NCBI GenBank assembly: GCA_036172245.1
Contig: JAYWIR010000035.1
Span: 1-64,000, forward strand
DNA: 64,000 bases
Reading direction: 5' to 3'
Origin: Raillietiella orientalis
Lineage: Eukaryota
The notes under the pieces are model-generated. The model did not search any database and had not been told where the DNA came from. It worked only from the letters and a program-made list of their open reading frames with translations. The position numbers were made by a program, and so were the translations under genes. The stretch's first letter is position 1; every line of letters begins with the position of its first letter. This document shows, piece after piece, positions 15,267 through 64,000 of this stretch.

Positions 15267-16630
15267 CGGCACTCCGTGGTCCACCGTATCGAAAGCCTTC
15301 TCCGTGTCAGTAAAGCTCATTAACAACTTCTCGCCGATATGTCGGCAGAGTCCAAACGTAGCTTATGCACACTTGACATTGTCCGCCATGCGGCGTTCCT
15401 GCACCAAACACGTGTGCACCGGAGAGAACAAATTCGGCATGATCTTCCCTAAGCGGATGGCACAGATCTTCGCAAACCACGTTGCCTCCGAGTTGAGGAT
15501 CGAGATTGGCTTCCATTGGATGATCTGCGTTAGGTCACCTCCTTTTGCCAGCAATCTCATCCTTCTTTCGTAGAAAGATCGGGATAATCGAGTTTGAGAA
15601 AACTATTTTGGTAGGAGTTGCCCAGATGTGTGCGTCGGAAGTGCTCTACGTAGTGAATTAGGAATACTTCCGTGATATCCTCCGACGTGTACTTGGCTCG
15701 AACTTCGTGCCGGATACAGGAAGTATCTGTTGCGAGATTCTTCTTCTTGAGCACGCCGACTTGTCTGTTGATGTTTTGGAAGACGTACCGACTCTCGTCT
15801 TGATGCCAGTACTTCGTGAGGGAGCGTTCTCAGATGTTCAGCTTCCTGTACGCTTCCTGCCTCAATCTCTCGTCAGCGAACTGCATGTTGCAGAAGAGGT
15901 GGACTCTCTGTTTCAAGCTATCCCAGTCGGCGAATCAGCTGATGATGGTCCTGGGAAGAATGGCCTCCATAAGCTGATGGTGGTAGGGAAGGGTTCCGAA
16001 CCAGGTGTGCATGCTGATAAGCGCCTCCATGCATAGCTTCATTTGACGAGGGTTTCTCATCATCGTGTGGTCGGACACAGGGTTGGGGAGTGTAGCGAAA
16101 CCCAAGGATGCGGTTGCCTATGTCAAGGCTGTAGAGGAGCTGGTCGATCGCCTTGTGGCTGGCTGTTTTCCACAGCAGTCCGAAGTCTTCGAACAGCCGC
16201 CGATACGCCTCCCTGACTCCGGCGTCCCGGGAGTAGATAATTAATTCCGGGATGTTGAAATCCCCCACGTTGCTAACGATGTCCTTCGGTGCGAACTTCT
16301 GTCGGAGGGTTTCATGTAGTGTCTCCTCGCAACGTTGGTTGTGTTGGTGGTTTCCGTGTTAGCGTCCACCAGGGACACGTTCACGTTCGCGGACCAGGAC
16401 TACCTTACGACGATAATTCTTCCAGGAACGGGGCAGAAGGTTTCCAGGATGGTGTTTACGGGCTCGTTCGTGATTGAGATCGGCACACCCATGGTGTACG
16501 TCTGTCCCTCGGTGGTAAACAGTTTGGAATTTTCCACTGATTTCCATGAATTCGCAATGAAGTTCATCTACAATTTTTTCCTTATGTTGCTGTTTTAATA
16601 AAGACGCAACATCTTCAGAAGACACCCTGC
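15267..16630 (-). mobile_element. Decayed L1/Tx1-like element (EN plus RT N-terminus), second copy
   Basis: Same GDFN, WKPISILN and EKAFDTVD motifs as 250-1319, extending further 5' into the endonuclease domain. Confidence 0.8.
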
Positions 16631-24513: not shown

Positions 24514-25285
24514 TGTCTTCGCAGATCTTCGACACGTTTCCACGCCACCCGAGGGTGGGTATTTCTTCGAGATAGAGGGTACCCTGGAGGGGTCCACCCC
24601 ATGAATCCAGGAAGGACTCGGGAGTCCGCTCCTCTCACGCCTGGGGAGGGTCCCCGGAAATGGAGATCACGTTCACCCTGGTTCTCTCCGAATGAGAATC
24701 CCGAAAGGAATCTCCTTCCTTATTCTCTCCGGAGGACCCCCGGGGAGTCGACTCCATTATTTCTTCTCTGAAGGGAAACGGGAAAGGATCCACTAGTAGG
24801 AATTTCTTCTCCGGAGGGATCCCCCGCAAGAGATCCGCTCCTGTTTTTACTCCTCTGAAGAGATCCTCGAAGGGACGCTTCCGTAATTCAGAAGGACACA
24901 TCCCCGAAGGGATCGGCTCGCTTCTCTGCACTCTCTGGAGAGGTGGTGGAGACACAGCATCAGTACGACTCCATCAGTACGACTTGGAGGGTCCCCGAGG
25001 ATTGGGGAGGATCCGCCCCTTCATAACCGGAGGGGAGCTCCCACTCCGTGATTCCTGGAAGGACCCGGAGGTCGACTCCCGTTGGTTGCGGCGCTCATCG
25101 GGGTTATCCCGTTTGAGCACCTACCAGTGCCGCACCCGGATGAATGCAGGCCAAGCAGACTTATCTGGCGGGATGAACTCGGAACCCACGACGCACTTCG
25201 TGGATTCCTTTCGGAGTATTCGAACCCACGACGCATGGTGAAACGCGCGAATACCGCCGCAACCACACGATCTCCGACGCGGGCC
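24514..25285 (-). mobile_element. 772-bp solo-LTR-like element, copy A
   Basis: Near-identical inverted copy of 46400-47171. One terminus is TGTCTTCGCAG; the other is altered (GCGGGCC instead of GCGGACA). No TSD found. Confidence 0.7.
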
Positions 25286-43508: not shown

Positions 43509-46500
43509 ATGAAACGTGTTCACATGCGTGCTCAAACTAGGTCAGTGGTCTTTTTCTCTTGCGCGCTCGTTCGGATCACTTAACACCCTATGTTTTTGTC
43601 TGCTTTCGCGTCTTGTTTACCAGGTTAAAAATGAAAAAAAATCTGGTTTCATCGCACGCGTCTCGGAACCTCTTGCGAATGATTTTGTGGTCATGTTTTG
43701 AGATTGAAAGCATTCATTCCCTTTTAGTCAACTCTCACGAAGTGTCGGGACGATTCTGTTTGATGCACTGGTAGTGTTTCTGGTCATCTCATTCGTTCCC
43801 GGACTTCCTCCTGCAGTGGACTATCCTTATTACAGGTTATTTGAATTTTCTGCTTACACATCAGACGTTTCCCTGCCGGTGACTCCCACCCTCTCTAAGT
43901 TTTCACTGAACCTTTGCTCTTCAGATACGAAAACCCACGCGAATTTGAGGGCCATTTAGCTCCTAACGATGTGTTGAACGTTGGGAGGAAGCTGTTTGAG
44001 GATGAACTTTTTGGTCCGGAGTCTCTTGCCTACCATAATGGTTTTATGTACACCGGGACCGTTGACGGTAAAATTGTCAGGATCGATCCTTCCCGAGAAA
44101 AGTTCGAGGTCCTCGCAACGCTCAACGCCACATCCGGTAAGCATTTTTGTCGCTAAGCATGCGTCTGTTGTGCTTACGGTGAGTGCATCTTTGAATTCCA
44201 TTCCCAGGCTAATGGCTGTGCTCTTAGCCATCCTGAAGTTCAGGAGCCTCCGAAAAGCAAAGCGTGGGCAAATGCGATCGACAGCACCTGAAAGGATGCG
44301 AAAATCGCGTTGACCGGAGTCGCCTTTTACCATTCCAGAACCCCGCGGTCCTCCTTGTGATTGACACACCGCCGCCAAGAGTGTGCAGAAGCGATTGATA
44401 CGCGTGCCGTTGCGAGATCATTTTGAGTTGGAGTTTCCCAAGACAACGCATTCCTTGAGGCGGATCCAGTGCGAGAGCCTAGGATAGCAAAGAGAAAGTC
44501 GAACAGCGGTTTGGTGCTTGGGACGAAGAGCAGACGGGGATCAACGAACTAGATCGGAGCGGCTTTCGTTACCGGGTCAGCTCACAAAAGGAAAAAAAAA
44601 AAAATTGGGCTTGGGCATAACAACGAAGAAGATCGGGTCACTGCACCGGTTCGGCGAATTTCCGTCAGCAGCAATACGGAGTAGGGGGGTTCTACTGCAA
44701 GAAACGCGCCCTCTCAGCACCCAGCAAGCAACACGTGAAAGGGTAAGCTGAATGAATGGAAGGACGGAAGAAACATTCGCAAATATCAGGTATACCTTGG
44801 GAGTCGGCAGAGGCAGTCAGTGGATGGATCGAACTTCGTGGGAAGAGGACGCGATGCATTCGCGAAATCTTTCGCAGAAGATCGCAAGGTCGGGGGCTGA
44901 AAAGAATGGCTCAGCGCAAGAGACTTGTGAGTGGCGGAGTTTTCCCAGTGGAAATGGAAATGGAAGTGCAGCTGAGAACTGGGTGCGACGGGGAATGGAA
45001 GCAACGCATAGGGAGGGAGCTTGGGAACATGTTAATCCAGGGATGTTATCAAATCCCCTGGATGGTTTGACATCTTGAGTGATCTGGCAAGAACCCCGAT
45101 GCAAGAAGAGATTTCTGAAGAATAATTTCGTGTTTTCCTGTGGTGACGTGATAAAGAGGAGGAAATGGTTATTCCGTGGAAACTGCGCGCTGCGTTTTAA
45201 GTGGACACGAAAATTTTGATGAAGACATTCCTGCGTACGTTCATGTCCTCAATTCCCTTCGGTCATTCAAACCATTCCGATAATTTAAACAGCACGCTGA
45301 AAAAATCGGCTGGAAAAAAAAATGCAAAGTGGTGAAAATGGGAATCGACAGGAGCCAACGCTTTACTAAGTGCACCTGGTGGTGGTCAAGAAAGGTCACC
45401 AGGAAGCCGTGTCTCGGGAAACTGAGTTGTTAGTTGTGGAAGCAAACTTCTCTTAACAGCGCACTTCGCTTGCAAATGATGTTTAGTCCCGCTCGTGCTC
45501 TTATACTAATCTTTCGCGATTTTCTAGCTATTTCTTGGCTAAACCCTTTTCGTTCTCTCGCTCTCATTGCCTTGAAATTCGCGAGGTGACCAGCATACCG
45601 GAGCCTCGATGCAACGCGCAAAAGTTTCTGTACAGAAATGAAGCTGAAGGAACTGTAATGTCTCCTAACATCGAAACGGGTTCCATTCGAAAGATGCTTG
45701 AGAATGAAGCTTGTGAAACAAGGGAAGAGCAACAATTCAGATGCTGTACGCATATTTGTTCCTTACTTTTTTGCTTTTAATGGGAGCATATCAAAACCAA
45801 CTCACCAGTGTAGTGATGCTAATCGTATTAAGATTCATGTTGATCAGTTTGAGCAGAGCAAAGCAACTTCTCTGAAAACATCCAACCATTATAAGTGACT
45901 TGGTTAATTCATATGCCAATTGGTTAGCCATAATAAATCAGGTCAGAATGTGCACTAGATCCCGGAGCAGAATCCTCTGGACAAGATTTATGTACGGAAA
46001 TCCAAGTTGAATCCATTTTTTGAAAGCAGAGGAAGAGAAATGGAAAAGATAACAGAAAGACGAAAAGCACTGTCCCTCAAGCGTTCCAGTTATCCCTGCT
46101 GTCAATCATTGCACGAGGCTGACATCGGTGTTCCCTTTAAATGGGTGCCCACACACTCTAAATCCACCTAGCTAGTTAAATTTGTGCCTGTGCTTACGAC
46201 TTCTAACGATTGCAAATGATAGTGTCAGAGAAATCAAATAATACTTGACCATTCTTGACCACAGATATTGTGATTCTCTGAGATCCGTTCTAGTGAAATC
46301 AAAACTGCTCGAAGACGGCGGATGGCGGTGCAAATAGGAGTCCCGCGTAATCGGACCATAAAAGTGAGGGTCACCCTGGCATTGGAGATTCTTCAGTATT
46401 GTCCGCGTCGGAGGTCGTGCGGTTGCGGCGGTATCCGCGCGTTTCACCATGCGTCGTGGGTTCGAATACTCCGAAAGGAATCCACGAAGTGCGTCGTGGG

Positions 46501-49399
46501 TTCCGAGTTCATCCCGCCAGATAAGTCTGCTTGGCCTGCATTCATCCGGGTGCGGCACTGGTAGGTGCTCAAACGGGATAACCCCGATGAGCGCCGCAAC
46601 CAACGGGAGTCGACCTCCGGGTCCTTCCAGGAATCACGGAGTGGGAGCTCCCCTCCGGTTATGAAGGGGCGGATCCTCCCCAATCCTCGGGGACCCTCCA
46701 AGTCGTACTGATGGAGTCGTACTGATGCTGTGTCTCCACCACCTCTCCAGAGAGTGCAGAGAAGCGAGCCGATCCCTTCGGGGATGTGTCCTTCTGAATT
46801 ACGGAAGCGTCCCTTCGAGGATCTCTTCAGAGGAGTAAAAACAGGAGCGGATCTCTTGCGGGGGATCCCTCCGGAGAAGAAATTCCTACTAGTGGATCCT
46901 TTCCCGTTTCCCTTCAGAGAAGAAATAATGGAGTCGACTCCCCGGGGGTCCTCCGGAGAGAATAAGGAAGGAGATTCCTTTCGGGATTCTCATTCGGAGA
47001 GAACCAGGGTGAACGTGATCTCCATTTCCGGGGACCCTCCCCAGGCGTGAGAGGAGCGGACTCCCGAGTCCTTCCTGGATTCATGGGGTGGACCCCTCCA
47101 GGGTACCCCCTATCTCGAAGAAATACCCACCCTCGGGTGGCGTGGAAACGTGTCGAAGATCTGCGAAGACAGAAAAGGATTTCCATCATGAGACAGAGAG
47201 ATAGTGCGAACACTATTAAAGCTCTGGAAATGCCATCCACTTCAGCACTTATCTGTGAGGAAAATAACAGCCATTGCTTACTACATAAGCAAACAAGAGA
47301 GGATTTGCGAGCTGGAAACACGCGCTTCGAATCAGTGCGAAACAGGAGCACTCGTTGTTAGGCATATGTCAGACTCTTGCATCTCAGAATAGTTTTTCAG
47401 TTAGGCTAGCTTCAGAGTTTCCAAGGACTTAATGATGTCTTGTAGCGATGTACGATTCTAAGGCAAGAGGAGCGTTTCTCATTTTACAAGGAGTGCAAGA
47501 CATGATGTTTACTTAGAATACCATACACATCAGTGCTGCAGTGCCACGTACGGCACTGCAGCACTGATGTGGATCCAGCTCGTCTTACTCAGGATAAAGG
47601 GTCCAACAAATGCAAAAAGGTTTTGCTTGAAAATCTGTGCGGGATTCCCAGAGTGAAGAATTCAAGGTCACTTCTTCGAGGATCATAAGACAGTGTCTAC
47701 ATACGTGTTAGGTAGACGTGAAATGGGGAAGCTGCTGGCGTGGAGAATAAACTCAGAAAGCATCATGGCTTGCCATGGATTTTTCAAATGCTACCTCACT
47801 TTAGTCTCCTCCGAGAGATCATTTAGGATTCTTAGAGTGCCAATTAAACTCAAAGAAATTCTATAAATCTGTCAGTTCTGTACCAAGTTTGTCCGCATTG
47901 CCCACCCGCAAAGAACAGAACGTAATGTAGGATGACAAACGTGAGCTTTGTTCCCACAGCTCGACTGTGCTAACATTTCATCTATAACAGGTCACTTGCT
48001 ACCCGGTCGCCCTCTTGGCTTGAGGATGAGAGATGACGGTAAATTATTCATAGCTGACGCAAACTGGGGAATATATGTCCTCGATGTTCATGCACGTAAG
48101 TAGGCAAGGGTCTTCGAATAGCACGTTTCAATGTCGAATAGCAAAAGCTGAACTGGAGCTTTTAATCAGCACTGATGACGTGATAGCCGGTAAAAGACCA
48201 CGCATTCCCAATTCACTTGACATAGAAGGGGACGTGATATACTGGACGGATTCCAGCACCACTTCTATTCTAGATGAATCAGTGATTGAACTTCTGGGGC
48301 ATCCAAGTGGAAGGTCATCGTTCTCGTTTGAACCTTACCGTGGCTAAATGCATTGCAGGGTTTTGGCGTACGATTTCGTTAAAGATGAGCACACGGTTAT
48401 TGATGAAGGCTTGCATTTTCCCAATGGCCTCCAACTATCACCAAATAAAGGGTTTTTGGTCGTAACAGAGACATTTCCAAGACGTTTGTTGAAGTGAGTA
48501 TGATAGTTTCAGCTTATTATTAGAAAGGCTCGGAATGCAGATCACTCGTTTTGTCTTGAGGGATGCTAGAGTTCAGCTTCGAAAGAAGTCAGCAGTTAGA
48601 TTTTCATAAATTCAGGGAAAAACATTGTGCGGTATACAGAATAACGATTCATGTACTAATAATGCACACGTGTGTAAAGTTTTTAATGGCATTTATTTTA
48701 GGTCAGGTTAGAGTGCATAAATGCTGTTATAAGATTGATTTGCAATGCATTCACAGTACTTCTTGTTTCAATTGCCTAGATATACCCTAAATAAAGGAAA
48801 AGTTGGCCCCAGAGAAGTTTTTGTGGATACTCTTCCCGGCTATCCTGATAACGTAAAGTTAACACCTCGGAATACCTTCATGGTGGGAATAGTCGCAATA
48901 GGAATCTCAAATGCTACTAGCATCGTGGACCTCCTTGGACAGTTGCCGCTTCTTCGGCGTTTCGTTCTGCGTAGCCTGTGCCTGATAAAATATTTTTTTG
49001 ATTATCTAAACTGGGTGATACCAAGTCCATTTTTGAAAAGCTTATCTGAAATGGTATGATTTTATTTGGAAGTACATTTCTTTAGCACTCTTAAAGCCCC
49101 TGAATCTGAAAACATTGAGCAAGTACGGTGGCTTTAAGCGATATGGTCTCCTGATAGAAGTCGACGAAGAGGGAAAAATAATCAAAAGCTATCACAGCAC
49201 AAATGGTAAGGCATCATCTTTCTGTGAAGGCTTGGAAGTCGATGATAACTTGTACATTGGTTCACCCTACAATAACTACATCTGGATGGTTCCAAAAGGT
49301 GGGACTGCAAGTGATTCAGTATATTGGGTAGCGTTTTTTTTTGTGTGTTTTTCAGACAGAATCTCATCTCCGAACGCACAAAATTCATTCACTCAGTAA
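43509..49399 (+). CDS. APMAP: Adipocyte plasma membrane-associated protein / hemomucin-like (strictosidine synthase-like beta-propeller)
   Basis: Exons 43509-43540 (tentative), 43728-43835, 43925-44136, 47991-48095, 48142-48313, 48359-48493, 48780-49053, 49097-49399 (the last may contain an in-frame 57-nt intron). Motifs: TM segment plus VPGLPP, GPES, YTGTVDGKIV, GRPLGLR, IYWTDSS, LHFPNGLQLS, LPGYPDNV, LYIGSPYNNYI. Confidence 0.9.
44740..45000 (+). mobile_element. Possible LINE (RTE/L2-like) post-RT fragment inside APMAP intron
   Basis: Frame reading KYQVYLGS...GRGRDAFAK resembles the KYLG...A..AF.K segment of LINE RTs. Confidence 0.25.
46400..47171 (+). mobile_element. 772-bp solo-LTR-like element with tRNA-like head, copy B (in APMAP intron 3)
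   Basis: TGTC...GACA termini. B-box-like gtcgtgGGTTCGAAtac near the 5' end. Near-identical to copy A. Confidence 0.75.
47526..47571. repeat. Perfect 20-bp-stem hairpin
   Basis: cacatcagtgctgcagtgcc-acgtac-ggcactgcagcactgatgtg. Confidence 0.9.
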
Positions 49400-49648
49400 A
49401 GTTCCCATCTTCCATGAAAATTTGTTTTCTACATCCACTTAGCCTCTTTTCTAATTCAGGATAAAAATTTAAAAAGTTTGGGAAACTGATGTAACTTGTA
49501 AAAAGGGATGCAAATCGTGGAGAATGAGATTTCATATCACAATTTGCTCTTGTTTTGCGTTGTCTCCCATCCCACTAAGGCAAACAACTATTATACCGTT
49601 TTCATTATCAAAGTTTTGCTTGATGGTTTAAGATACTCCAATAAAATC

Positions 49649-52600
49649 CTAAATAAGGTTTTCATTCTTTTTCAAAGGCACATCATCAATTAATATTCCT
49701 TGTGACTTTGATGGCATGCTTCTTGCTCGTGTCTGTTGGCTTACAGAAAGTTTCACTTTCCCAGGAAAGTTTCTGGATAAATCTTGGTCTTTGGTGGATT
49801 TTAACAGATCCCGTTCTCGACTGGAAGTAGCACGGTCATTCACAAACATGTTCAAAGCAGTTTTAGCCGCCTTCCCACGGCGTGCATTTCCTGGAATCAT
49901 CTTCACTTTATACCTACAATAAAGATATTAGAACAAGGATAATGCTTTTATAACTCACTTGTAATTCAAAAGTACAGAATAGGGTGCACATACAGGAACA
50001 GCAAATAGAAGTTCATCTTCAGGTAGAGGCATTCCTGTTAATGTTTTTAGCAAATCATGATTTGCTGCAAACTGTTCCTCTGGTGCAGCAACATCTTCAT
50101 TCAGAGGGACCTCATGTTTTGCAGAGTGAATCTCATTAGGAGCATCCCTAGTCACATTTTGTGAAACTCCACTCTTCTTTACTGTTTGATTTGACTTTAC
50201 TGCTTTTTTGTTTTTCTTCTTTTCTTTTTTAGATGAGGAAGAATGCAGCAACGACATTCTCAGAAGACGCTCCTCTTCATCCTGGTGCCGATATTTCTCA
50301 CGAATCTTCTTCAACTTACTCTTCTGTCCTCTCTTCATTTCAGAGGACTGAGCATTCTCAGCACGTAACTGCTTATTCACATGGACGTGATCTTTCTTTT
50401 CCGTAACTTGTGCTTTTTGCGTTCTGGTTTGTGTCTTCTTTTTAGGTATTACGTTTTCTCCAATAATGGTAAATTCTTCTTCTTGACCTAAGTGCTCCGC
50501 TGCAATTTTCGAAAATCCTATGGAGATTTGTCCCGCGTCACCAATTTCAATTTTCATTTGGGTGTCAGGAAATGCTTCTGCAGTATCCTCTAATGATTCA
50601 TCACTGCTGGAACTAACTTCTACTTCTGCTTCTTCATGAATATCAGAGGTTTCGTGGTCATTGCTCAATTGCTGGTCTTTACATTGACGTTCTCCCTGAT
50701 GTCTGCAAATTGAAGATTCCTCTAACCTGAAGAGAAAACCAAATCCAAAAATCAACGGGCATGGTGGCAGGTAATTTTTGCGACCACGGATCATGAAACT
50801 GCCAGTAGTCAAATATTCTCCAGTAGGCGCACTTTTGGATACCTGATGAGCCAACACCCACCAAGCACTGGCAATGACTTTTGCTTCCCAAGCTGCACTG
50901 CATTCAAATGTGTACTCAGATAATATGCATTGAATTTACCTGTAGCAAAGTGCCATTACACCAGCCTCGTTCAAGGTTTTAGGGGGTACAGGTCCATCCA
51001 AATGATTTTTGATGATAATACTACTGCCACCATGCATATCAGCATGCACATAGATATCAGCCTGCTTCAGATACCGTCTGACCAGCATCTCGTTTTGCTG
51101 CTGATCCCTACCTCCAATAACTGCATCCCAGTTGCAATGCTATGTGGCTTCCCAGTGCTCACCCAGGTAATTCTCTGAACTGATGAACCAGTGGAATTTC
51201 TCAAACCAGAAAATCCGACGTGCTTTATGAATACTAGCAACAGTATGAACTTCTTTAACTGCCTTCCATATCTTTTGTTCTGCTGAATGCAAAGCTTTAG
51301 ATGATGCCTCTTTCGTTTTTTGCTCTTTAAGAGTTGCCTGACGGCGCATTTCATAGTAATGCTTGGCATTGGCATGTGCAGTAAGACTGAGATCTACATG
51401 GATCGACAAAGGTGCTGCTTCTTCATCATAAGGATTTCTACAAGTAGTAAAAAGTTAAAGAGTTTTGAAATGAGAATTTAACACCTTACTTGAGAAGCAT
51501 AACAACATGGTTGATATCTAGACGGAGTTCTTGAATAGACAAAGCTACTGCATCTTGCCGGGCTTGTGCTTCTGCTATAATATCCTGCACCTCTTGCCAG
51601 GCTAATTGATTAGCCAGAGCACTGTTAATTACTAAGCACGCTTTATCAACAACTGCCTGATTCATGATCACGTATTCAGCTTTCTGCAAGTACACCTCCT
51701 GAACTTCATGAAGTTGCTGTTGTCTCTGATTCTGATCCATCCGAATCTGATCCAGCTTACGAAGAAGTTCTTTTTCTTGATTTAGTGCTTGCAAGTCATG
51801 CTTTTGACTTTCTATACATGAAAAGAATTCATCAACTGCATGAAGGAAGGAAGGATGTTGACTAAAGGGGCATTGAGAGTGTTGCAGCAAAAGTATTGGA
51901 TGAAACTCTATAAAAGTAGTCAAGGTATCTGATGTGCCATCAGGCTTTGTTTGGTGATCCAATTTTTCCAAGATAAAACCCTACATGCATCCAAATATCT
52001 GTGTCTCTTTTCGTTACCTGGCAAGGTTCTTTTACTGCCTGATTAAGCAATGCATATGATTCTTGTAGACCACCAACAAGCTTTTGCACATCAGAATCAG
52101 TTAAACAGAAATCTTTGCCAATTTTAGCATTCTTGGAATACCCAGCACTAAGTAATGCATGTTCTATAAGAGCAGGCCCATAGTCTACAATTTGAATATA
52201 TAAATCAAATCAAAAAACAATAACATTACCTGTATTGGGAAGGAGACTTTTTTTCAATGGATCTCCTTCTTTGGCTTTGCATAAAATATCATATAATTCT
52301 GCACTACTTAAACATTTTTGTGCAGGTTTTATTTTCTCCAAAGGATACTTTTCACGCACAAGAAACTTCTGATCTTCTCCATGTTTCCTAGGTCTCAAAA
52401 CATTCAGTATAACATATTCGTGGTCAGTAAGAACGATATTTCCCCGATCATAGAGCTCTAGTACAACATGACAAGCAACGGGTCCTGATCCAAAAGTTAC
52501 ATCTATAATGCGATCGGTTCCGAGCTGATGTATTTGCTCCAAACGTTTGTTTTTCAAATGTTTTCTCATCTAGTAATGCTTGATACTAGTTAAGGTCCAA

Positions 52601-53157
52601 ACATATTTTCAAATTAAATAAACATCAAGCAAAATTATTAAGATCACAAAATTTAGTTAAAAACTTAATTTGCTATTTCTTTTTTACCTTCATTGTGAAG
52701 CTGGAAGGTGCAACATTTTTGGGCCATTCATAATGGGTCGTATGGATACGACTCCCCGATTCCAAAAGTATGACTACCTTTTCATTTTCTCGCCCCAATT
52801 TGAAAAGATAAATACGTTGATTAACATCGTATACTTGGACTACTCGCATTCCAAGGTATCTATGTTGAATTAAATAGAAGACATAAATTTCCCTTAAAAT
52901 GTATTTCTTTATTTTCATTAACATGCAATCTAAATCAACATTTATGTGCTCGTTCTCCACAAAGCATTTTTTATTTTCAAATTGCACTACACACGTAAGA
53001 AATTTGCCCAATCTATCTGCACCACCGGTCTAATGCAACACCAGATAATGTAATTTATCAATAAGATTAATTTGATCATAAAATCCATGGGTACCTACTT
53101 TGATCTTATCTCGCTTACAGCAGCAGCACAATCAAGAGAAGTAAATCTTGTCTTCAT
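49649..53157 (-). CDS. NEMF: Ribosome quality control complex subunit NEMF (Caliban/Rqc2)
   Basis: Exons 53157-53099, 52859-52688, 52569-52230, 52184-52018, 51980-51490, 51437-51163, 51120-50940, 50897-49959, 49913-49649. Motifs [80 protein letters not shown]...YKYKVK. Confidence 0.97.
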
Positions 53158-54249
53158 CTTCCAACAGAATTTAAACCAATCAAGCCCTTTTAAAGAGTCG
53201 AAAAATTTACACTTTCGGCAAATTTACTCCACAACTAGTTTCAATTCTTGGCAGCACTTCCTTCATCGGGCAGACGTTCTACGTACACTTGGATGCGAGC
53301 TTCTTGGATGTATTCAGGCATGCACTAAATTTTTTCAAATATACAGAAAGAAAACTTTTTCAAATCCAAAGCATTCAGGAATTTAAGAAGAATTGCAATG
53401 TTGCAACATGAAGCAATATTGGAACAGGAGAATTGTAACACAAGGGAATCGAAATTCTACAATTTATGATGAATTAATTAAAATGTGAAGGTAAATCAAC
53501 AGATTGGACCGATCAACGACGATAGCTTTAAGTTACGAAAGATGGTTTTGGTCCTATGTGATAATCATTTCTGAATATTGACGTACACAACTCAGCCACA
53601 ACTGTTTGCAAAAATTTCTCATCAATTTTCGTCGGAAATTTATAATTGAGATTTGACGCCTACATCGGAAAAAAAAAAAAAAAATTTCTTAATATTGACG
53701 AAAGAAGCAGGTGCTTAATGAGCTATGCAGTAGACTGAGAAAACGACAAGAAATGACTTTATTTTCTGAATCATCTAGAGCATCATCTAAAGATTCTCCA
53801 CAATAGTACATTAACAATCTAATGAAGCACAATAAGCTGAAGAGAAATATAGGAACCATAAACTCGAAATAAATTGATCTAGTCTGTGAACATTTTTCGA
53901 AATCTTTTGAATTTCAAGTCACTAAAAGAATAATTATTCGGGAACTTTATAACCTAAGCACATTAAAATAAAGTGATGTGAATACTATAAGGAAGTTACT
54001 GATTCTGGAAACTAGCCTCATGTTCTGCTGGGTTTTTAGTATGAATTGGTACATACTACTCAAGTTATTACATTTTGAAACCGTTCTCAATCATTGAGAA
54101 CTGCTTTTGTTGAACCATTAATCATAAAAAGTTAAATTTTGTGTAAGGGAATACTTTCATGTTATGATTGAATATCTTCCAACAGGTTCTTGGAGTAAAG
54201 ATGACTTATATTGATTTTGGATAAATGATTGAATGGAAAACTTTTGAGG

Positions 54250-55500
54250 ACGACAGTTGGCCATATACATTTCTCAAAGGTCACTCTTATGAGAACGAGA
54301 TCTTAAGATTTCACATGTATCTGAAGATTTCACACATTTCACACATGTTATTTGGGATGAAACTGCGTTCATGAACATATTTTTGAAAGAACCATGGAAA
54401 ATACTGCTTGAGAATTGCATTCCTTAGAATAAGGATAAAAACCTGTTAGAATTTTTCAAAATTTAGAGCTTCATTGAGTGAAGTGTATATTTTCTTTTTC
54501 GAGATTTTGCTTTCAAGGAACATTACAACTCGTTTTCCATCAGTCAGTTTTCTTGAATTAAAGTATTTAAATGAATTGACCAACAACTGAAGTTTTGAAT
54601 ACATTTTTTAAGACTTCCCAAATTAATTAGAATATGAATCCGGAAACGATTCTGTGATCAAACCCTTCTTTGGATCATATTTAGAAAATGATATATGTGC
54701 CTCTTCAAAATTAAAACACAACAAAATTCTTTATGCAAATAATGTCATACAATCAAGACGAATATTCAATATTTTCCAAATTATGCAATCAACTATTCGA
54801 TATAACTGAATTTTGACTACTTGCACACAACACTCAATCAATTCTAGATACATTAATATCTCCTCAGTGCAAGAAGACAACCATTTTCTTTCCTGTTCAA
54901 AAATATTTTTTATAATACATTAAATATAAGATCCTCGATGACGAAAATTTTTAAAACTTATTCATACTCGAATATCGCTGATAACATTTGAAAGAATGAA
55001 AAATGAGAATCTAAACATCTTACCAAAACCTGAATATCCGAGTTATCATTTTTCTCTTTCTTAGCTCTTAATATTCCATAATGCAAGTTCTATTTTCAAA
55101 TTCATTTGGTCCAGATTAGGCATTAAAGAAGCTTTACTTGCGAAATGAAATTTGTCACAAAACCTCGACTAAAGAAGGTAAACATTATTTTGTGGTTGAT
55201 TGCGAGAGTGCTAACTTATGGATTTTAGAGGGAGTTTGGAGCTGCATCCACTGATTCTGCATTTTTTCTTGTTATACATGCATCCCTCTTGGATGCTTGA
55301 TGAGATTTAAAGACATCTGGAGACACCGAGAAAAAAGAATCTACTATTTCGGATAGTGGTTCTGTTTTGAATTTATTTATCTTGAATTCTTAAAGACATC
55401 TTCTGTAAAACTTCGTGTTCTTCATTCTCCTCCAAAGTTTTCAAGGCTACAGTTTTTCATAAAATGGATGCAACGGTGAGGCTCCATCCTTTTGAGCATG
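54250..55500 (-). mobile_element. Decayed hAT transposase remnant
   Basis: Fragments EDVF, KIHKLAL (cf. HCxxHxLxL), YPYSK and KYVHERSF (cf. TYxCExxFS) occur in hAT order. No open frame. Confidence 0.4.
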
Positions 55501-56279
55501 CACGTTCCATTCTCAAGTTAGATAGAATGCAAGATGAATGTAAAGCGTTGGATTTCTTAAACAAGAACGAAAAAATAATGGAAAGAATATATTTCATTTC
55601 AGTTCCTTCATCTTCACAGATGGTTTGCTTTGGAAAGCAGTCGAAGTTGAATTTCAGAAGTCTGCATTCTTCTACATTTTTCGAAGCTTTTCAAAATTAA
55701 TTTGAAAAGCATTAATTTGCCGTACCCTTAATAAGGTGCTTCGAAAAGTAGAAAGTAGTCATATGCTACTAATAATGCTTGAATATGCAGAACCAGTTGA
55801 TGCTACCACGTTGATGGACAGAAATGTATGAAACGAAGAAGGAATTATCCAAGATGATTATTATTTACACTCATTGTCTTGCAAGCTACTTTGGAAAAGG
55901 AGAGAACCTTTTGCAAAAATGGAGAACATTTATTTCCCAGAAAGAAAGCAACCTGACGATATGTGAGTTTAATTTTGGTCTAAACCTCATTTCAGATCGA
56001 GGGCACGCGGAGCACTAGTCTTGCGTTCGGAACATAAACGATCCAAAAAGACGAAGAGAACTGCAGCAGAGAAGCACCATTCATTAAATGAAAACATTAG
56101 ATGCATTCTGATTGACCATCGGTCATTTCGAGGCTGAAGCACGAAAAGGAGCTAAAATCGCATTTTGAAACAGTTCCAAGTTCTAGTCCAGCCTGCAGAC
56201 GCTGAAATGGAAGGGAACTATCTTAGTAATAATGAACATGCCATGAAACCAAAAACTCTCAAAAGACTGAATGCAATCT

Positions 56280-58179
56280 TCAGTGTACTTAGGAAGCATT
56301 TATGACTGGTAATCAGCCGTAGTTTCGTTAACGCTGACTGGCATCACTTGAGTACATAAAATTTCATAACCACAGTGACAAGTCTCAAATGAGTTACTTG
56401 AATTGATGTCAAAACTTACTAGCTGAGAAACTGATAAACAGCCAACAGGAAAAAGGAAGGGAAAAAAGACTGCCTAAACATGCTAAGTAAAACGGAATTG
56501 TCTATTTTCATTCCCTTGTTAAAAACAGCATTTCTGATAGCAATAAATCTAAAAATTACAAAAGGATCTCTTGTGAGATATTTTTTCGGTTCACTTTGAG
56601 GTGTTCCAAAGCACGCTAATGTACCCTTAAAACTGTTATAAGTAGTGTTATAAGTACCACTGTTAGTGTTAAAGTACCACTGAAAACAATTGCATCCAAG
56701 GCGGTAAAAAAAAAATAAAATAAAACGCACAAAGCAAGGAGTACCGATTTTTATTTTCATCTTCAGATGTTTCGGTATCTTAGAAATTCGAAAAAATCGT
56801 TCAAGTATCCAATTAGAAAATTAAACCAGCGTAAAGAATGCTACACCGTTTCGTATAAAATCAGCTTCTATAGCTAAATATGGAGACACTTCGTTTACAT
56901 GCATAGATATACAATGCACACTAACATAAATAATTCATTCGTTCCATCATCTGGTGATTTATCGATCAAATATTAGTTGGACAAGGCTATTTATTTTGTA
57001 TTTAGAAAACCACAGTTCGTATATATTTTCATCCCACGAATGTTAATGGTCTGTAGCACTCTCAGGCCGATGATTACATACGTTATTACTGTCGCAGTAA
57101 AGGAAATGCAAGTCTGGTGTCATGAATTTTTTTATTTTGATTCCTGTCTTCCGGGAATTATGCTACATGTTTTACTTCTAATGAAATTCCAAACATTTTC
57201 ACCTGGCATTCCTTCGTGGTAAACTTGAGTTAAATTAGCATGAAAAAATTGAACACCAACTAGCATCTTTTACCTCCAAAAGTTATTGATTGTACATTGT
57301 CTTCCATGGAATTTCTCATCTATCTTTCTCATCTATTTCTCAACTATCTTGATTTGGAAACTATATGCATTTGCAGGTACAATATCACAAGACTAGTACA
57401 ATTCCTGTTTTAGGAACATTTGCATATTGTTCCAGCCTATAAAGGGATCAGCAAGCTTTTAAACTCTACCATGAATCATCTTTACTTAAAAAAAGCTTCA
57501 CATGCATTCAAAGTCTTCAATTAGCCAGGTAGAAAATTTAATAACAAATAAAGAAGTTATCATATTGTAGGATTCTTCCGGATTCTTTTTATCACTTAAC
57601 AAATAGCATCTCTGTGAACTGCTCTATCTCCAGTACAAACCAGTATCAATCATTGAACTGATCATCAATATCTTTAACAGAGCGAACACATATTGTTAAT
57701 TGGCAAATGGATGTGCACAATCAAATGAGAAGTCATTTGAGCTGATTCTGCATTACTCAGGCTTCCGATCTTCGTGTCTGATGTATGAAAACCTGATATA
57801 TACATGAACTCTAAACACAAGTTTCAATCAGAGCAAGTCTGTATCACTGATGCATGCATTAGGAGCAGAAGTTCCATACTTCTCAAAATTGAAAGGAGCC
57901 AAATGCCAGCTTTCAAATCCTTCAAGAATTCAGCAAATTTTATGTATGTTGAATATGTGTTCCTATGTAGAAACACTGGTATCACCAACCAATGAATGAA
58001 GACACCCATGAACCAGAGCAACCTTATAATCAATTCTCTAAATGGAGTAAGTTTTCCAGATGGTGCCTGATGGCTATCTAGGCACAAATATTCACATAAT
58101 TCAAAGATCACGCAGTAGTATTTGTTCTGAATAATTATGCTAACATTTCAGTATGGATCATGGAAAAATTCCCACACCT
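56280..58179 (-). pseudogene. ASNSD1: Decayed asparagine synthetase domain-containing protein 1
   Basis: Ordered remnants across frames: CGNFSM (cf. MCGI), EYLCLDSHQ (cf. RGPD/NS), LLWFMG (cf. VLHLRG), EFLKDLKAGIW (cf. GPWSF), IDTGLYW, NVPKTG (cf. PDRxTG), RQSFFPSF...VYQFL (cf. EARFPFLDExVVxFL), MLPK. Many stops and frameshifts. The SGGxDS and GADE motifs were not found. Confidence 0.7.
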
Positions 58180-58335
58180 GAAAGAGACAGCAAACTTCTT
58201 GATTCTCTTGTCTTCGGAAAGCCATCCATAATGTTTGCTACAAAATGATGATGAATCCATAACATCAATGATATGATTCTGTGTGATCAGAGCAATTGAA
58301 GCCTTTAAGCAAGGGAATCTAACATTCCAAAATGA

Positions 58336-58944
58336 TCATGTCTCTGTTTGCAACTGATTATAATTTTTGAGCTGTTTCTTTTTTTTTCTTATCTGTTCAT
58401 ATACTTGCTCTTTACTACTCAAGAAAAAAACTCCATTTTGTATATCTTGCTGATACACTTTCTGAATGAAAATAAAAATAGTTAGTATGTATTTTTAATT
58501 AATAACAACATTCTTAGCATTCCAGCAAAAATTTTTGTTGAAATTCAAATTAGCAAGCAAATAACAGAGAAAATTATATCATGTACTTAAAGTTTCAATA
58601 AAAACATGTATCTTGATATCAAAATACAAATAAAATAAAAAAACTTTCAAGTAACTAAAAATACCGCACGCATTCTGTTTCTTCAAATTACTTTCAAATC
58701 CTGGTGAGATTCATTAGACACTGGAAACACAATGTAATCAATGTATCACACCATAGGGGGGGCATCCATGGGGAAATCGAGATAAAAATATTTTCAAAAT
58801 TCAGTGAGGCGGGAGATACTTACGGAACCTTTTCGTAACGAATCCAATTCGGCTTCAGTAATCTCCAATTCCCTGAACTTCAAATCAAGATTAAAGCGCG
58901 GATTCCACTTTGTTCTTGATGCTCACCTTAACCTGGTTCTCCAT
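58336..58944 (-). CDS. ASDURF: ASNSD1 upstream ORF protein (prefoldin-like PAQosome subunit), 65 aa
   Basis: Exons 58944-58927, 58877-58824, 58461-58336, with two phase-0 GT-AG introns. Spliced protein MENQVK|FRELEITEAELDSLRKGS|KVYQQDIQNGVFFLSSKEQVYEQIRKKKKQLKNYNQLQTET* matches the ASDURF pattern ELxxLKKxxKVYxQxxNxxxFFL. Lies directly upstream of ASNSD1 remnants. Confidence 0.85.
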
Positions 58945-59689
58945 CACTCAGAAAAACGTGCTGCCGGCCAATATCATTCCTGAACCTCGTGGGTGTGAAC
59001 GGGAAACTGATACGACATAATTCCAAAGTCACGAAAGCTTGTAGTTGTACGAACGAGCAAAAACAATTTCGATGAAACGATCCTATTTTTCCTTACGAAA
59101 CACTTTTTGCCTTAAAACTGATTGACCACTAACATTTACAACCCACGGCATGCACACAACCGCACCTCACTCACGGTGTGGGAAGCTGGTCGAGCGCCTA
59201 CGAGAGGCGCGTCACGCTGTAGTGAGTTACGAATGGTACACGAGCAGTAGTGTACATGTACTAGGTGAAGATGGAGAACTATCATCGTAACGCTCTACGA
59301 GCAGAGTGAAGAAATGGGTAATCAACACTTTATTACAAACAAGTTAGCAGATTTATGGAATGCACCACCATGTGTATAAAACTACAACACGTATGAGAAC
59401 ACGAAATTAGGAATGCTATTGATGAAAAGCAATCTGATGATATATGCAGTAAAGCTCTCGAAAACCACTGTACTTTCAAGATGCCAAATTCCCGAGCTAG
59501 AAAGGGATCAGCTGGTGATATGTTGCGATTTGAACCTATCAGTGCACGAACGTAGCCAGCTAACCTAAACCTAGCATTTGGCTAGCGTGCACCAAGTCGC
59601 ACAAACGTCTCCCTACATGTTCCATAAACAAAGTAAGTGGTAAGGAGTAGGCTGTGTTCATTGCAACACTGTTTGACATTATATTGTCA

Positions 59690-61450
59690 GTTACTTCTAA
59701 TTATTGTACAATACACTTGCTGTGCATTTTCTGGAAACTTCTGTGAAAAGCCCCATTCATTCAACCTGTCTGAAATAGGAAAGATCAGTAGTGAACTCTC
59801 TTTTAGCAAAAGTGAAAAGAAAGGCTCTAGATGATCGGTCAAATACCGAAATACATTGTAAACATCTTTGCATGCTCGAATCTGCAACTCTTAAAGACAG
59901 CACTCCGATTTTTAATCACGAGTTAGGGGATCTGTGTCCATGAAGACAAAGACAACTAAAAGTTCCATTGTGCTCACTTAAGGAATCTGGAAAGCACAAT
60001 CAGGCTATTGTGTTCACTGTAACTCCAGCGTGGAGTCCTACTAGTTTAGATATATCAAAAAATATCTTTTCGAGAATGTAAAAAAGTGTTTGGTAAGAAA
60101 AGGGGGTGTTTTGTAGTTTAACGATGCAACTGAGTTTACATGACACTGAGCGTACATATAATGCTTTAGATGCTGGTGAAGTGGAAGCTACTAACTGAGC
60201 AGAACAGTAGGATTGTTCACATCGCAAAGAATAGTTTCAGGCAAATGTTTAGTGCAGGTGAACTAGACTGTACTGAAAGGGAACAACGCAATCTAGTTGT
60301 GTAAAAAAAGGTTTGGACATCAGCAGGATGAATTCCTGAAAATACAAACGGTTAAAAAATGCTTAATTTTGGGAACTAAAAAAAATATAGCTCATTGTCA
60401 GTGATTCCATCAGGGGGTAAGATGCATTCGTTTAATTTGGAATAGTGTTCTAATAATGTTGTTGTTTAGAAACATGATTCATACATTTTCCTCTAGTCGT
60501 GTTCCTCTGCATTTTTCATTCTTTGGAGGCATGTATTATTTTTTTGAGTTTGCTAGAGAAATGCTTTCCTGCTTTTACCTATGAAACTTTTCATCACGAA
60601 GTTTTCCTCTTTGGCACTACATTAATGCTTGCCACATGCTTCATCCAATCTAGTATTTTAAAAGAAATTGCACAAACTTCGAGTTTTGTTTAGGTTTGTT
60701 TTCTATTACTAATCTTGAGTATTTGGTCAATTTCCAAGGATTTCTCATTCTTGACGATTTCCAATTTTAGTATGTAGTTATACTTTCGCACATAGTTGCT
60801 ACATCAATTTCAAAGTAACTTCGTCATGTTTTAAAGGATCCGCAATGTCAGGGGATAAGTCTCCCATGAACTGTAATAATTCCTGCCAAGGTACAAACAT
60901 AGGCGAGTAATTTTTACTGTTCACATACTACTAATTGTTTGAAGGTTGTTTAGGTTTTCAAAAGTGTCGCGTAATTTTATTTGCCATGTTTCCACATTAT
61001 CACCTAGGCATGTAAAATATTTTGCAAGCTGAGAAACTTTCATCAGCTTCTTCTGGTAACTGGGAAAAGATTTTGTGTGTGTGTGTCATGAGCATATTAA
61101 GAAAAAAGAAAAATCTAATGAATTCGTTTTTTGAAAAAGAACCAATTTCGTGTTACAAAGTAGTCAGCTGCACAAAATAGTGCACAAATATTTGAATGTT
61201 TTTCGAATCCTCGATTTCGAAAGTTTGAAGTTTGTACAGACAGCCAATGTTTCTGCCTGGGAAAACATCACAGTAAGTGAAGCAGGATTTAGGATGCCTT
61301 TTTAAAAATGCAGATAAATCACTGCTGTAAAAGGAAAGTATATTTGGTATTACAAGGTATACTGGAATTATAATGATGGTGGTGTTAACGTCTCAAGTCC
61401 CGCATCTGAAGAAATGCTTAGTAATAAAATCTTATAACTTGTGCATAGAA
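59690..61450 (-). pseudogene. Possible decayed multi-exon gene of unknown identity
   Basis: Several good acceptors and donors on the minus strand (tattttcag|GA near 60335, AA|gtgagc...acacag near 59977-59932, ttggcag near 60886, ttttcccag near 61060) bound exon-like stretches that contain stops. Confidence 0.3.
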
Positions 61451-62408
61451 TAATTCATTTCATAGTTAGTGACTGAACTAAGATGCATTGCATGAATTTG
61501 CTGTCTAACGTCTGTTACGTGTTCAGCGCATTGATAGTTAAATAATATTTCAAGATTGCTATCGTATATATGCAGAGATTCTTAATTATAAATCTGTTGA
61601 TACAAACACACACTCACACACCAAAAAGATTAACAAATGTACGTCTTCCAACTGAATGAAACATGTTTTTTACACTTTTCACGTTCGAGTATTCAACGAT
61701 CTACGTTACAGCTATGCAGTAGGCCTTGCGAAGAATAAAGACGTGCGGTAAAGACGGATCCAATATGCACGTATAGCCTTAGCGTATGGATTGCTGCTTC
61801 TGCGAGGTACCGTTGTAACGTCCACAAAAGTTAGCACTAAGCACTAAGGAAAAATATTAACTAACGTGAAATCGATTGTTCCCGTCCATCAAGCTTCATT
61901 TGAAATCGTTAAAAGTGTTGAAGAGCAATGGAAACTTGTGTAATCTGTGTTCAAGCATTGATTTTTCTTTGTAAATTGTGCATCTCGTAAGTTTTTTCAT
62001 GCGAATGGAAAAGTTTACGAAATTCAATTGTTTTGCACAACATACGTGTTTTAAGATATATGTTTGTTTGTTTGTTTTCATTTGTAGGTGGCTATATGAT
62101 AATGTGTGCGTGGCTTTTTCTTTTCTTTTCTGTCAAGTGGTGGAACTTATAGGTAGCACTGACTTGGAAGAACTCAAAGATGATGCTTGCTTTAATGTTT
62201 TTAGAATTTTGAATCCGTAATGTAAATGTAGTTTTTGGCCATCAAAGTCAGTGAGCTTTTGGCTGCTTTTATTAGAAATACACAACAACGGATCATCATG
62301 AAGTTTTCACGCATTCGTAATGTGTGTTTAGTGCTTATCAGTTTGAGTTCCTTTGAATAGTGAAAGTTTTGTGTGGAAAAACTTACGTGCATTTATAAGC
62401 AGTTGCAT

Positions 62409-63305
62409 ATGGCTGATCTAATTGGTCATAATAATGCAACCAGACAAGAGAAGTCATTAGGATTATTGACGACAAAATTTGTAAACTTGCTACAACAAGC
62501 TGAGGATGGCATTTTAGATCTCAAAGATGTAAGTAAATGTTTCTAATGCATCAAAGTGCAAGTGCACTATGATAATTTTCAGTTGTGTTAGAACCGCGAT
62601 TAATCTTTTTCCTAATAAAGATCAACTAAAATATACCGAGATTTTAGTACAGTACATTTGAAAACTTGCCGACGTAAATACTTTACAGGCTGCTGACAAG
62701 TTGGCAGTGAGGCAGAAAAGAAGAATATACGATATTACAAACGTCCTTGAAGGAATAGGATTAATTGAGAAGAGAACAAAAAATAGTATTCAGTGGAAAG
62801 GAGGGAATCCCGGTTCAAACAATCAGAAGTATTCAGAAAGAGTATTTCATTTAAAAAAAGATATTAGTGAATTAGAATCTAAAGAAATGGAACTTGAAAT
62901 ATATCATAAGGTTTTATTCAATTTTTCAAGCGACAATAGCAAAATGGCTTACTTACTATCTAGTGGATGCAACAATCATATCGCAACACCATTGAGGATT
63001 CCAGTAATGTGCCTCATGCATATATGCGCTATGAAGCTTTGAGTGAGTGTTATCCTCAACGGACCTTGTTGGCAGTGCGTGCAGCAGAAGGAACTCAAAT
63101 GGAGGTTCCTTATAATAGCAAGGCAAGACTAGATTGCTGCTAAACTTAGTATTCAGTGTAGGATAAAGTTGAGAAGTTTCAGTTACATATAAAGAGTACT
63201 CATCATCCCATTTATGTGCTGTGTATAAATCATGACAATGAAGAATCTTCTCCAGTTGTTTTACCTGTACCTCCTCCAGATGAATTACTGAATAATTTTT
63301 CTTCA
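62409..63305 (+). CDS. E2F4: Transcription factor E2F4/5-like (5' exons; 3' exons not resolved in this window)
   Basis: Exons 62409-62528, 62689-62910, 62964-63122, 63162-63305. [57 protein letters not shown], marked-box LLAVRA..GTQMEVP, and PVVLPVPPP typical of E2F4/5. Confidence 0.93.
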
Positions 63306-64000
63306 GTAAGTATCTTATTGCACCTTAACTTATAAGTTACATAATAAGGCAAAATGAAGAAAAGATTTAACATAAAACAGAGTATGAGTTTCTACATAAT
63401 TTTTCATGGCCTTTCGGAATTTTAGTTTTTCTCTTTTTCCCTCCCCTCATTTTCTCTCTGTTCTATGTAGCTTTTACGAGAAGGCTAGTTTCGTAAAATA
63501 ATTGTTATTCCATTAATGATAATTAGATCATATTTCATAGGCAAACTGTTTGCACTTTTCATTTTGATATCTCTTTTCGAGGGTGTCAGCCTTTATGTTT
63601 CAAGATTTGAAGGATAATTGGAACACATCAGTTTTGTGTCAAAAAATGTTCATTTTTATCCCTGTATATATATTTTTTCTTTGTATTTTTGCATGGTGTA
63701 CAGAGAGAAATATAGTGCTTCAGGAAATGCATTTAAGAACATAAAAAATTCTAGAATCACCTGATCTCATACTCTCCACTGGAGAGTATCAGATCAGCAT
63801 GCTTACATTTGATCAAATAATTGCAAAAAACTCAAAAGTTCTCTTAAACTTCATTTGCATTGGACATACAGTTTGAAATTTCTAAAAATCAAAGTCCACT
63901 TCCTCATTGTGTTGCAATTATGGTGATTTCGTATTTCTTGCAAAAGAGATTGTGATTGTAGGATCACAATGATTTTAATAAGTTTTGAGGTATTTTGTGA

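Follow-up and report, generated by a model that had tools for sequence, protein, structure and literature searches.

We analysed a 64-kb window of genomic DNA (the whole stretch under study, positions 1 to 64,000 of contig JAYWIR010000035.1 of Raillietiella orientalis, assembly GCA_036172245.1), whose minus strand carries, at 58944-58927 / 58877-58824 / 58461-58336, a spliced reading frame of 65 codons that very probably encodes an orthologue of ASDURF. ASDURF is a small beta-type subunit of the PAQosome prefoldin-like module, which it shares with URI1, UXT, PDRG1, PFDN2, and PFDN6, and as the sixth subunit of that module it is among the few microproteins encoded by upstream open reading frames (uORFs) to have a defined job. 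The founding paper on ASDURF is reportedly that of Cloutier et al. 2020. In the relevant passages of PMC13303939, ASDURF-ASNSD1 is listed as a bicistronic human transcript, and selected passages of 10.1101/2023.05.04.539399 describe human ASDURF as encoded over several small exons, a division that the gene in the window shares.

A spliced ASDURF-like gene

Joined by script from the window, the three exons make up 198 nt with no internal stop codon, interrupted by two GT-AG introns that both fall in phase 0. The initial annotation of this frame as a 65-amino-acid, three-exon ORF with two clean introns was thus exact in its coordinates, splice sites, length, and lack of internal stops. The proposed first coding exon (58927..58944), the least certain of the three, comprises six codons from an ATG at 58944 in the context GTGATGG and ends at the donor AAG/GTGAGC (slashes mark exon boundaries). 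Intron 1 (58878..58926) measures 49 nt and closes with the acceptor TTGAAG/T. Coding exon 2 (58824..58877), of 18 codons with the donor TCC/GTAAGT, would supply the N-terminal helix of a prefoldin-like fold. It is followed by intron 2 (58462..58823), 362 nt of AT-rich sequence (GC content 0.24-0.28) with a strong acceptor, TTTTCATTCAG/A. Coding exon 3 (58336..58461; protein P0001) adds 41 codons and the stop codon TGA at 58338-58336, and would encode the hairpin and the C-terminal helix. No second copy of ASDURF was found in the 64-kb window.

Exon 2 offers no in-frame ATG unless the 49-nt intron is removed, and intron 1 is needed because its removal is the sole way to bring an ATG into frame with that exon. 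Over 2.6 kb upstream, three ATG-started frames with a phase-0 donor matching at least seven of the nine consensus positions are candidate first exons; the proposed exon 1 is the best of the three, with a donor at 8/9, and no other feature singles it out.

The identity of the product was assessed against mouse ASDURF (99 amino acids), with the sequence given in the supplement of PMC11781309. By hand alignment, window residues 6-60 pair with the mouse protein without a gap, residue i of the window corresponding to mouse residue i+24, such that exon 2 covers mouse residues 31-48 and exon 3 covers residues 49-84. Sixteen of the 55 aligned residues are identical (K6, E9, I12, E16, L17, L20, K22, V26, Y27, Q29, F36, F37, L38, L55, K56, and Q60). 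These identities, seven of them in exon 2 and eight in exon 3, cover the closing part of the first helix, the hairpin (V-Y, Q, F-F-L), and the second helix, and span the junction of exons 2 and 3. A composition-matched binomial model (match probability 0.084) gives P = 7.8e-6, or 1.3e-3 after correction for 163 diagonals, and the BLOSUM62 sum, added by hand, is 84, or approximately 37-41 bits. The shared core, from the end of the N-terminal helix through the hairpin to the C-terminal helix, bears out the earlier suggestion of ASDURF homology, although the window protein, at 65 amino acids, does without approximately 24 N-terminal and 10 C-terminal residues of its mouse counterpart.

An AlphaFold2 model of exon 3 alone places a helix at residues 16-40, with predicted local distance difference test (pLDDT) values of 81-96 there and a mean of 79 over the whole model. 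The hairpin part is unstructured in this model of the isolated exon; a helix-hairpin-helix layout is compatible with the model, which covers exon 3 only. The expected layout of helix, beta-hairpin, and helix, of which the C-terminal helix is confidently modelled, would be that of beta-type prefoldins such as PFDN1, PFDN4, and PDRG1, from which the window protein differs in having arms far shorter than those of canonical subunits and no significant sequence match to them. Judged by the sequence alignment, we consider it highly probable that the three-exon product is an ASDURF orthologue. By analogy with human and Arabidopsis ASDURF, its predicted function would be that of one of the four beta subunits in the prefoldin-like hexamer of the PAQosome.

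DNA downstream of the ASDURF stop codon

No functional ASNSD1 frame lies on the same strand between ASDURF and the next gene, NEMF. On the minus strand from 58335 down to 53030, before NEMF, no open frame exceeds 133 amino acids, and searching Pfam from the ASDURF stop to NEMF placed none of 90 stop-to-stop pieces and none of three read-through frames in an amidotransferase or asparagine-synthase family, which agrees with the initial annotation in that no working ASNSD1 follows ASDURF. A broader Pfam scan of 125 pieces of at least 45 amino acids (47462-64000) returned no Asn_synthase match on either strand, while the same piecewise procedure did recover exons of neighbouring genes (Str_synth, NFACT, and E2F matches) from pieces as short as 49 amino acids.

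ASDURF in this window is therefore not a uORF of an intact ASNSD1 but stands alone as a gene, which sets it apart from vertebrate ASDURF, whose name derives from its place in the 5' leader of the ASNSD1 mRNA. In Arabidopsis, too, this prefoldin-like subunit is described as having a stand-alone gene, ASDURF (AT1G49245), which was recovered by affinity purification-mass spectrometry with URI, UXT, PDRG1, PFD2, and PFD6 (selected passages of PMC10893143; 10.1101/2023.12.13.571423). The likeness is one of description, and the Arabidopsis gene differs in being a plant gene and in that the passages on it report no ASNSD1 remnant beside it. Because Arabidopsis ASDURF also lacks a linkage to ASNSD1, such linkage is not defining for the ASDURF family, and the locus studied here groups with the stand-alone kind rather than with the vertebrate bicistronic kind, in this case probably in an animal genome.

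In ASNSD1, a cysteine directly follows the initiator methionine in the N-terminal class-II amidotransferase domain, and the C-terminal half is an asparagine-synthase (PP-loop) domain. Downstream of ASDURF, a stretch that may be left over from the glutamine-amidotransferase part at the N-terminus of ASNSD1 was noted on the minus strand at 57828..58181, starting 160 nt past the ASDURF stop and made up of three motifs in order, in three frames and with four stops. The first is Arg-Cys-Gly-Asn-Phe, with its cysteine codon at 58176, preceded by AGG instead of ATG and followed after 14 codons by TAA; the second, Asn-Phe-Glu-Lys-Tyr at 57890, is in a different frame from the first; and the third is Ser-Asp-Thr-Asp at 57848. 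Stops at 58137-58135, 57965-57963, 57932-57930, and 57830-57828, plus two frame changes, break the stretch. The spliced ASDURF frame has no disruption in 198 nt, against four stops and two frame changes in the neighbouring ~350 nt.

The three motifs follow those of Escherichia coli AsnB (MCSIF, NGEIY, and SDCE) in order and with similar spacing, and the pattern shared with class-II, or N-terminal nucleophile (Ntn), amidotransferases can be written Cys-Gly/Ser-x-Phe, Asn-x-Glu-x-Tyr, Ser-Asp-x-acidic. Unlike those enzymes, the DNA just past the ASDURF stop has no start codon, no profile-level similarity, and no synthetase domain, and the resemblance of the stretch to an amidotransferase is at motif level only. 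When the patterns are tuned to the window, the chain is found a single time across both strands of the 64 kb and in none of 2000 dinucleotide shuffles of the 5.3-kb region; with patterns derived from AsnB and allowing mismatches, this is still the sole site in the window, and 5 of 3000 shuffles give the chain. The chain sits exactly where a second cistron would be expected to begin, which we counted in favour of a remnant.

Further downstream, a stretch at 56186..56473 on the minus strand, in one frame with a single stop, may resemble the C-terminal end of ASNSD1, a likeness seen by eye and supported by no tool; counted from the N-terminal motifs to this stretch, the whole would extend over approximately 640 codons, the length of ASNSD1. 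The frame 56473-56186 has no Pfam match, its three matches in the PDB include no asparagine synthetase, and the ESM Atlas returned nothing usable for its 57-amino-acid piece (56303-56473). No repeat accounting for a missing middle part was found by self-BLASTN and a tandem-repeat search of 53000-59600. A Gly-Arg-Asp-type motif seen by eye near 57600 was dropped after a pattern search gave it no support. The initial annotation had described ordered but shattered ASNSD1-like peptides here; what stands of this description is the three ordered motifs with their stops and frame changes, while no profile or alignment method detects ASNSD1 or an amidotransferase, and no tool detects a synthetase half.

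The same region holds, at 57046-57162 on the minus strand, a 39-amino-acid open piece that resembles a conserved, cysteine-rich motif in the NC1 domain of collagen IV, probably by chance. Against single NC1 chains its expect values (E) are 0.13-0.14; a tandem NC1 fusion, in which two weak stretches add up, gives 0.00089, and Pfam has no match for the piece.

Predicted transcription unit and neighbouring genes

The 5' end of the ASDURF gene coincides with a CpG-rich block at 58750..59250, with observed/expected (o/e) CpG ratios of 0.90 and 1.42 and a GC content of 0.44-0.46, which is the likely promoter and 5' leader. By contrast, 57500-58500 has CpG o/e values of 0.0-0.3 and a GC content of 0.26-0.37. 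In bins with small CpG counts, o/e stays at 0.0-0.5 from approximately 58750 down to approximately 57200 and is near 1 beyond (56600-57200). Over the whole window CpG o/e is 0.86, and its depletion is patchy. This pattern is unlike that of a vertebrate, and the patchiness is what gene-body methylation would be expected to leave in a non-vertebrate genome.

Within 794 nt of the ASDURF stop there is neither AATAAA nor ATTAAA. The earliest signals past the stop are an ATTAAA at 57542 and then an AATAAA at 57136, and the predicted 3' untranslated region accordingly covers 57131..58335 on the minus strand. Taken together, the CpG block, the CpG-poor body, and the poly(A) signals suggest a long 3' untranslated region within a transcription unit of approximately 1.5-2 kb.

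The nearest recognisable gene downstream is NEMF, of the NFACT family, on the same strand (49652-53157), with NFACT domains over 49652-53029 and a first coding exon running from an ATG at 53157 to a GTAGGT donor near 53100; its later exons match NFACT_N, NFACT-R_1, and NFACT-C in Pfam and include one open exon of 326 amino acids. On the plus strand, at 3.5 kb from the ATG of ASDURF and oriented head-to-head with that gene, lies an E2F-type transcription factor gene (62409-63140), whose first coding exon extends from an ATG at 62409 to approximately 62528, followed by GTAAGT, and whose later pieces match E2F_TDP and E2F_CC-MB. A strictosidine-synthase-like (APMAP-like) gene is found at 43899-48494 on the plus strand, with Pfam matches to SSL_N on 43899-44153 and Str_synth on 48348-48494.

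Noise matches from a TBLASTN search of the window with E. coli AsnB also included near-identical pairs (618-770 and 15635-15787; 13665-13772 and 16868-16761; 12521-12655 and 18040-17918; 24748-25283 and 46937-46402). These pairs show that the GC-rich parts of the window contain large blocks in more than one copy, in some cases in inverted orientation; the blocks are presumably copies of a mobile element.

Origin and significance of a stand-alone ASDURF

The explanation we put forward, with a probability of roughly 0.45, is that the locus holds an intact, monocistronic ASDURF orthologue behind which ASNSD1, once the second cistron, decayed in place. Transcription of ASDURF would start in the CpG-rich block (58750-59250) and yield a monocistronic mRNA whose 3' untranslated region of approximately 0.8-1.2 kb would end near 57540 or 57130, and the product would fill one of the four beta positions in the prefoldin-like hexamer. 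The ancestral mRNA would, at about even odds, also have carried ASNSD1, starting approximately 155 nt past the ASDURF stop as in vertebrates, and this cistron would then have lost its start codon and decayed where it lay, leaving faint amidotransferase motifs in what is now the 3' untranslated region. The wider claim, that the ASDURF-ASNSD1 two-cistron gene is older than vertebrates and that here the main frame died in place while the uORF was kept under selection as the sole product, is one we hold tentatively, with the odds somewhat against it.

A number of results weigh against this explanation, beginning with the gene itself. Exon 1 and the 49-nt intron are a candidate only and form the weakest part of the gene model, and the alignment with mouse ASDURF is hand work and did not come from a program. 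Library searches took the 41-residue exon 3 as the query, which has little power in libraries of such size. Pfam placed exon 3 in no family, two word-indexed searches of a collection of 5.8 billion proteins (one for longer proteins and one for proteins of near length) found nothing, and the ESM Atlas gave no usable match. With phmmer, 1.84 billion representatives yielded one match and no ASDURF; that match, a repetitive 856-amino-acid protein with no aligned stretch, was rejected as spurious. In the PDB, phmmer gave 10 matches, all at E 0.09 or worse, and the PFDN4 chains among the PDB matches (E 1.4 and 2.2) were rejected because they aligned to the wrong helix. A scan of metagenome contigs with the 52-amino-acid frame that holds exon 3 gave a single locus (L002, 4817-4888, plus strand), which is probably a chance find. 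It was seeded by an exact eight-residue pattern and lies on a GC-rich contig that ends 255 nt further on; eight residues identical to the hairpin turn of the window protein are followed by a run of lysines, with no V-Y, upstream helix, or in-frame start codon.

The downstream DNA likewise failed to yield a remnant to any alignment or profile. Pfam found neither GATase nor Asn_synthase in the three read-through frames and 90 pieces, phmmer against the PDB found no asparagine synthetase with three downstream stretches, and TBLASTN of E. coli AsnB against the window, at E up to 100, gave only noise, with nothing in 57800-58200. A frameshift-aware local alignment with a position-specific score matrix built on 79 AsnB sequences scored 29.8, against 31.1 +/- 2.9 in shuffles, 197 of 300 of which scored as high or higher; asnB itself, as the control, scored 2367. 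Patterns for the PP-loop and GxGxDE, with one mismatch allowed, had no match in 53000-58400, and no tool picked up any trace of a synthetase half. In addition, a word-indexed protein search with the read-through N-terminal remnant returned nothing, and a genome-contig search for ASNSD1-like genes brought up 80 AsnB loci from bacteria and no eukaryotic ASNSD1. The patterns, spacings, and permitted mismatches of the motif search were set post hoc, and the shuffle counts therefore overstate the significance of the chain. Because one post hoc motif chain stands against negative Pfam, TBLASTN, profile, and PDB searches, the remnant is weakly supported, and we put the odds that the downstream DNA is ASNSD1 decayed in place at about even. 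ASNSD1 and AsnB are only distantly related, however, and for that reason the negative tests based on AsnB are of limited power, although the negative tests are the sole unbiased ones among those applied to the remnant.

These negative results are equally what would be seen if ASDURF were a true orthologue but an independent gene, with the motif chain there by chance and ASNSD1 located elsewhere, lost by deletion or rearrangement, or never linked. Such an origin is a serious possibility, if a doubtful one: every alignment- and profile-based test of the downstream DNA was negative, the motif test was post hoc, and a stand-alone ASDURF gene is known in Arabidopsis (AT1G49245; selected passages of PMC10893143; 10.1101/2023.12.13.571423). 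Against it, the chain is unique on both strands of the 64 kb, begins where the vertebrate layout predicts, and arises in few shuffles of the 5.3-kb region (5 of 3000), and the tests that failed to find a remnant relied on a relative from bacteria and on general, speed-filtered Pfam models, a combination with low power against an old remnant. It is also conceivable, but unlikely, that the 65-codon frame is no working gene at all, whether because the frame and its splice sites arose by chance or because it is a remnant of ASDURF that has fallen silent. No protein in the 5.8-billion collection shares enough five-residue words with exon 3 to score, 740 stop-to-stop frames of at least 45 amino acids in the window make an open 52-codon frame nothing rare, and an intron of 49 nt is short; yet the ungapped match to mouse ASDURF continues from exon 2 into exon 3 with both order and phase correct, the donors and the acceptor are near consensus, a CpG-rich block lies at the 5' end, and the 198 nt are free of disruptions of the kind that riddle the adjoining ~350 nt.

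The position of NEMF on the same strand, with its ATG (53157) 5.2 kb downstream and no other recognisable gene in between, raises the question of whether ASDURF is the upstream cistron of that gene instead, in a transcript that splices into NEMF. We regard this as very unlikely, since CpG o/e climbs back to 0.8-1.2 immediately before the NEMF ATG (53200-53800), which suggests that NEMF has a promoter of its own, poly(A) signals intervene at 57542 and 57136, and no observation connects the two genes. The possibility that an intact ASNSD1 is present and the assembly is wrong through indel errors is the most remote of all, with nothing found in its favour, given that the breaks include four substitution-type stop codons and AGG in place of ATG before the cysteine, that neighbouring genes read cleanly (for example, the 326-amino-acid open exon of NEMF with its NFACT matches), and that there is no synthetase-domain signal at all.

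In the literature searched (titles and selected passages), we found no report of an invertebrate ASDURF or of the loss of ASNSD1 behind ASDURF. A gene of this kind escapes ORF tracks and the large protein searches tried here, and was recognised only by means of one published sequence. A lone ASDURF in an animal-type genome indicates that a link to ASNSD1 is unnecessary for ASDURF to persist. If the remnant is true, the locus would be a record of a bicistronic gene resolving to a single product and of which cistron selection retains, and it would represent a transitional form between the vertebrate bicistronic and the Arabidopsis stand-alone arrangements. Selected passages of 10.1101/2023.05.04.539399 identify the ASDURF uORF as a genetic dependency of human cancer cells in itself, with the coding sequence of the parental ASNSD1 as the comparison. 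Should the decay of a two-cistron gene be the true history of this locus, it would amount to a natural knockout pointing to the microprotein, and not ASNSD1, as the indispensable cistron.

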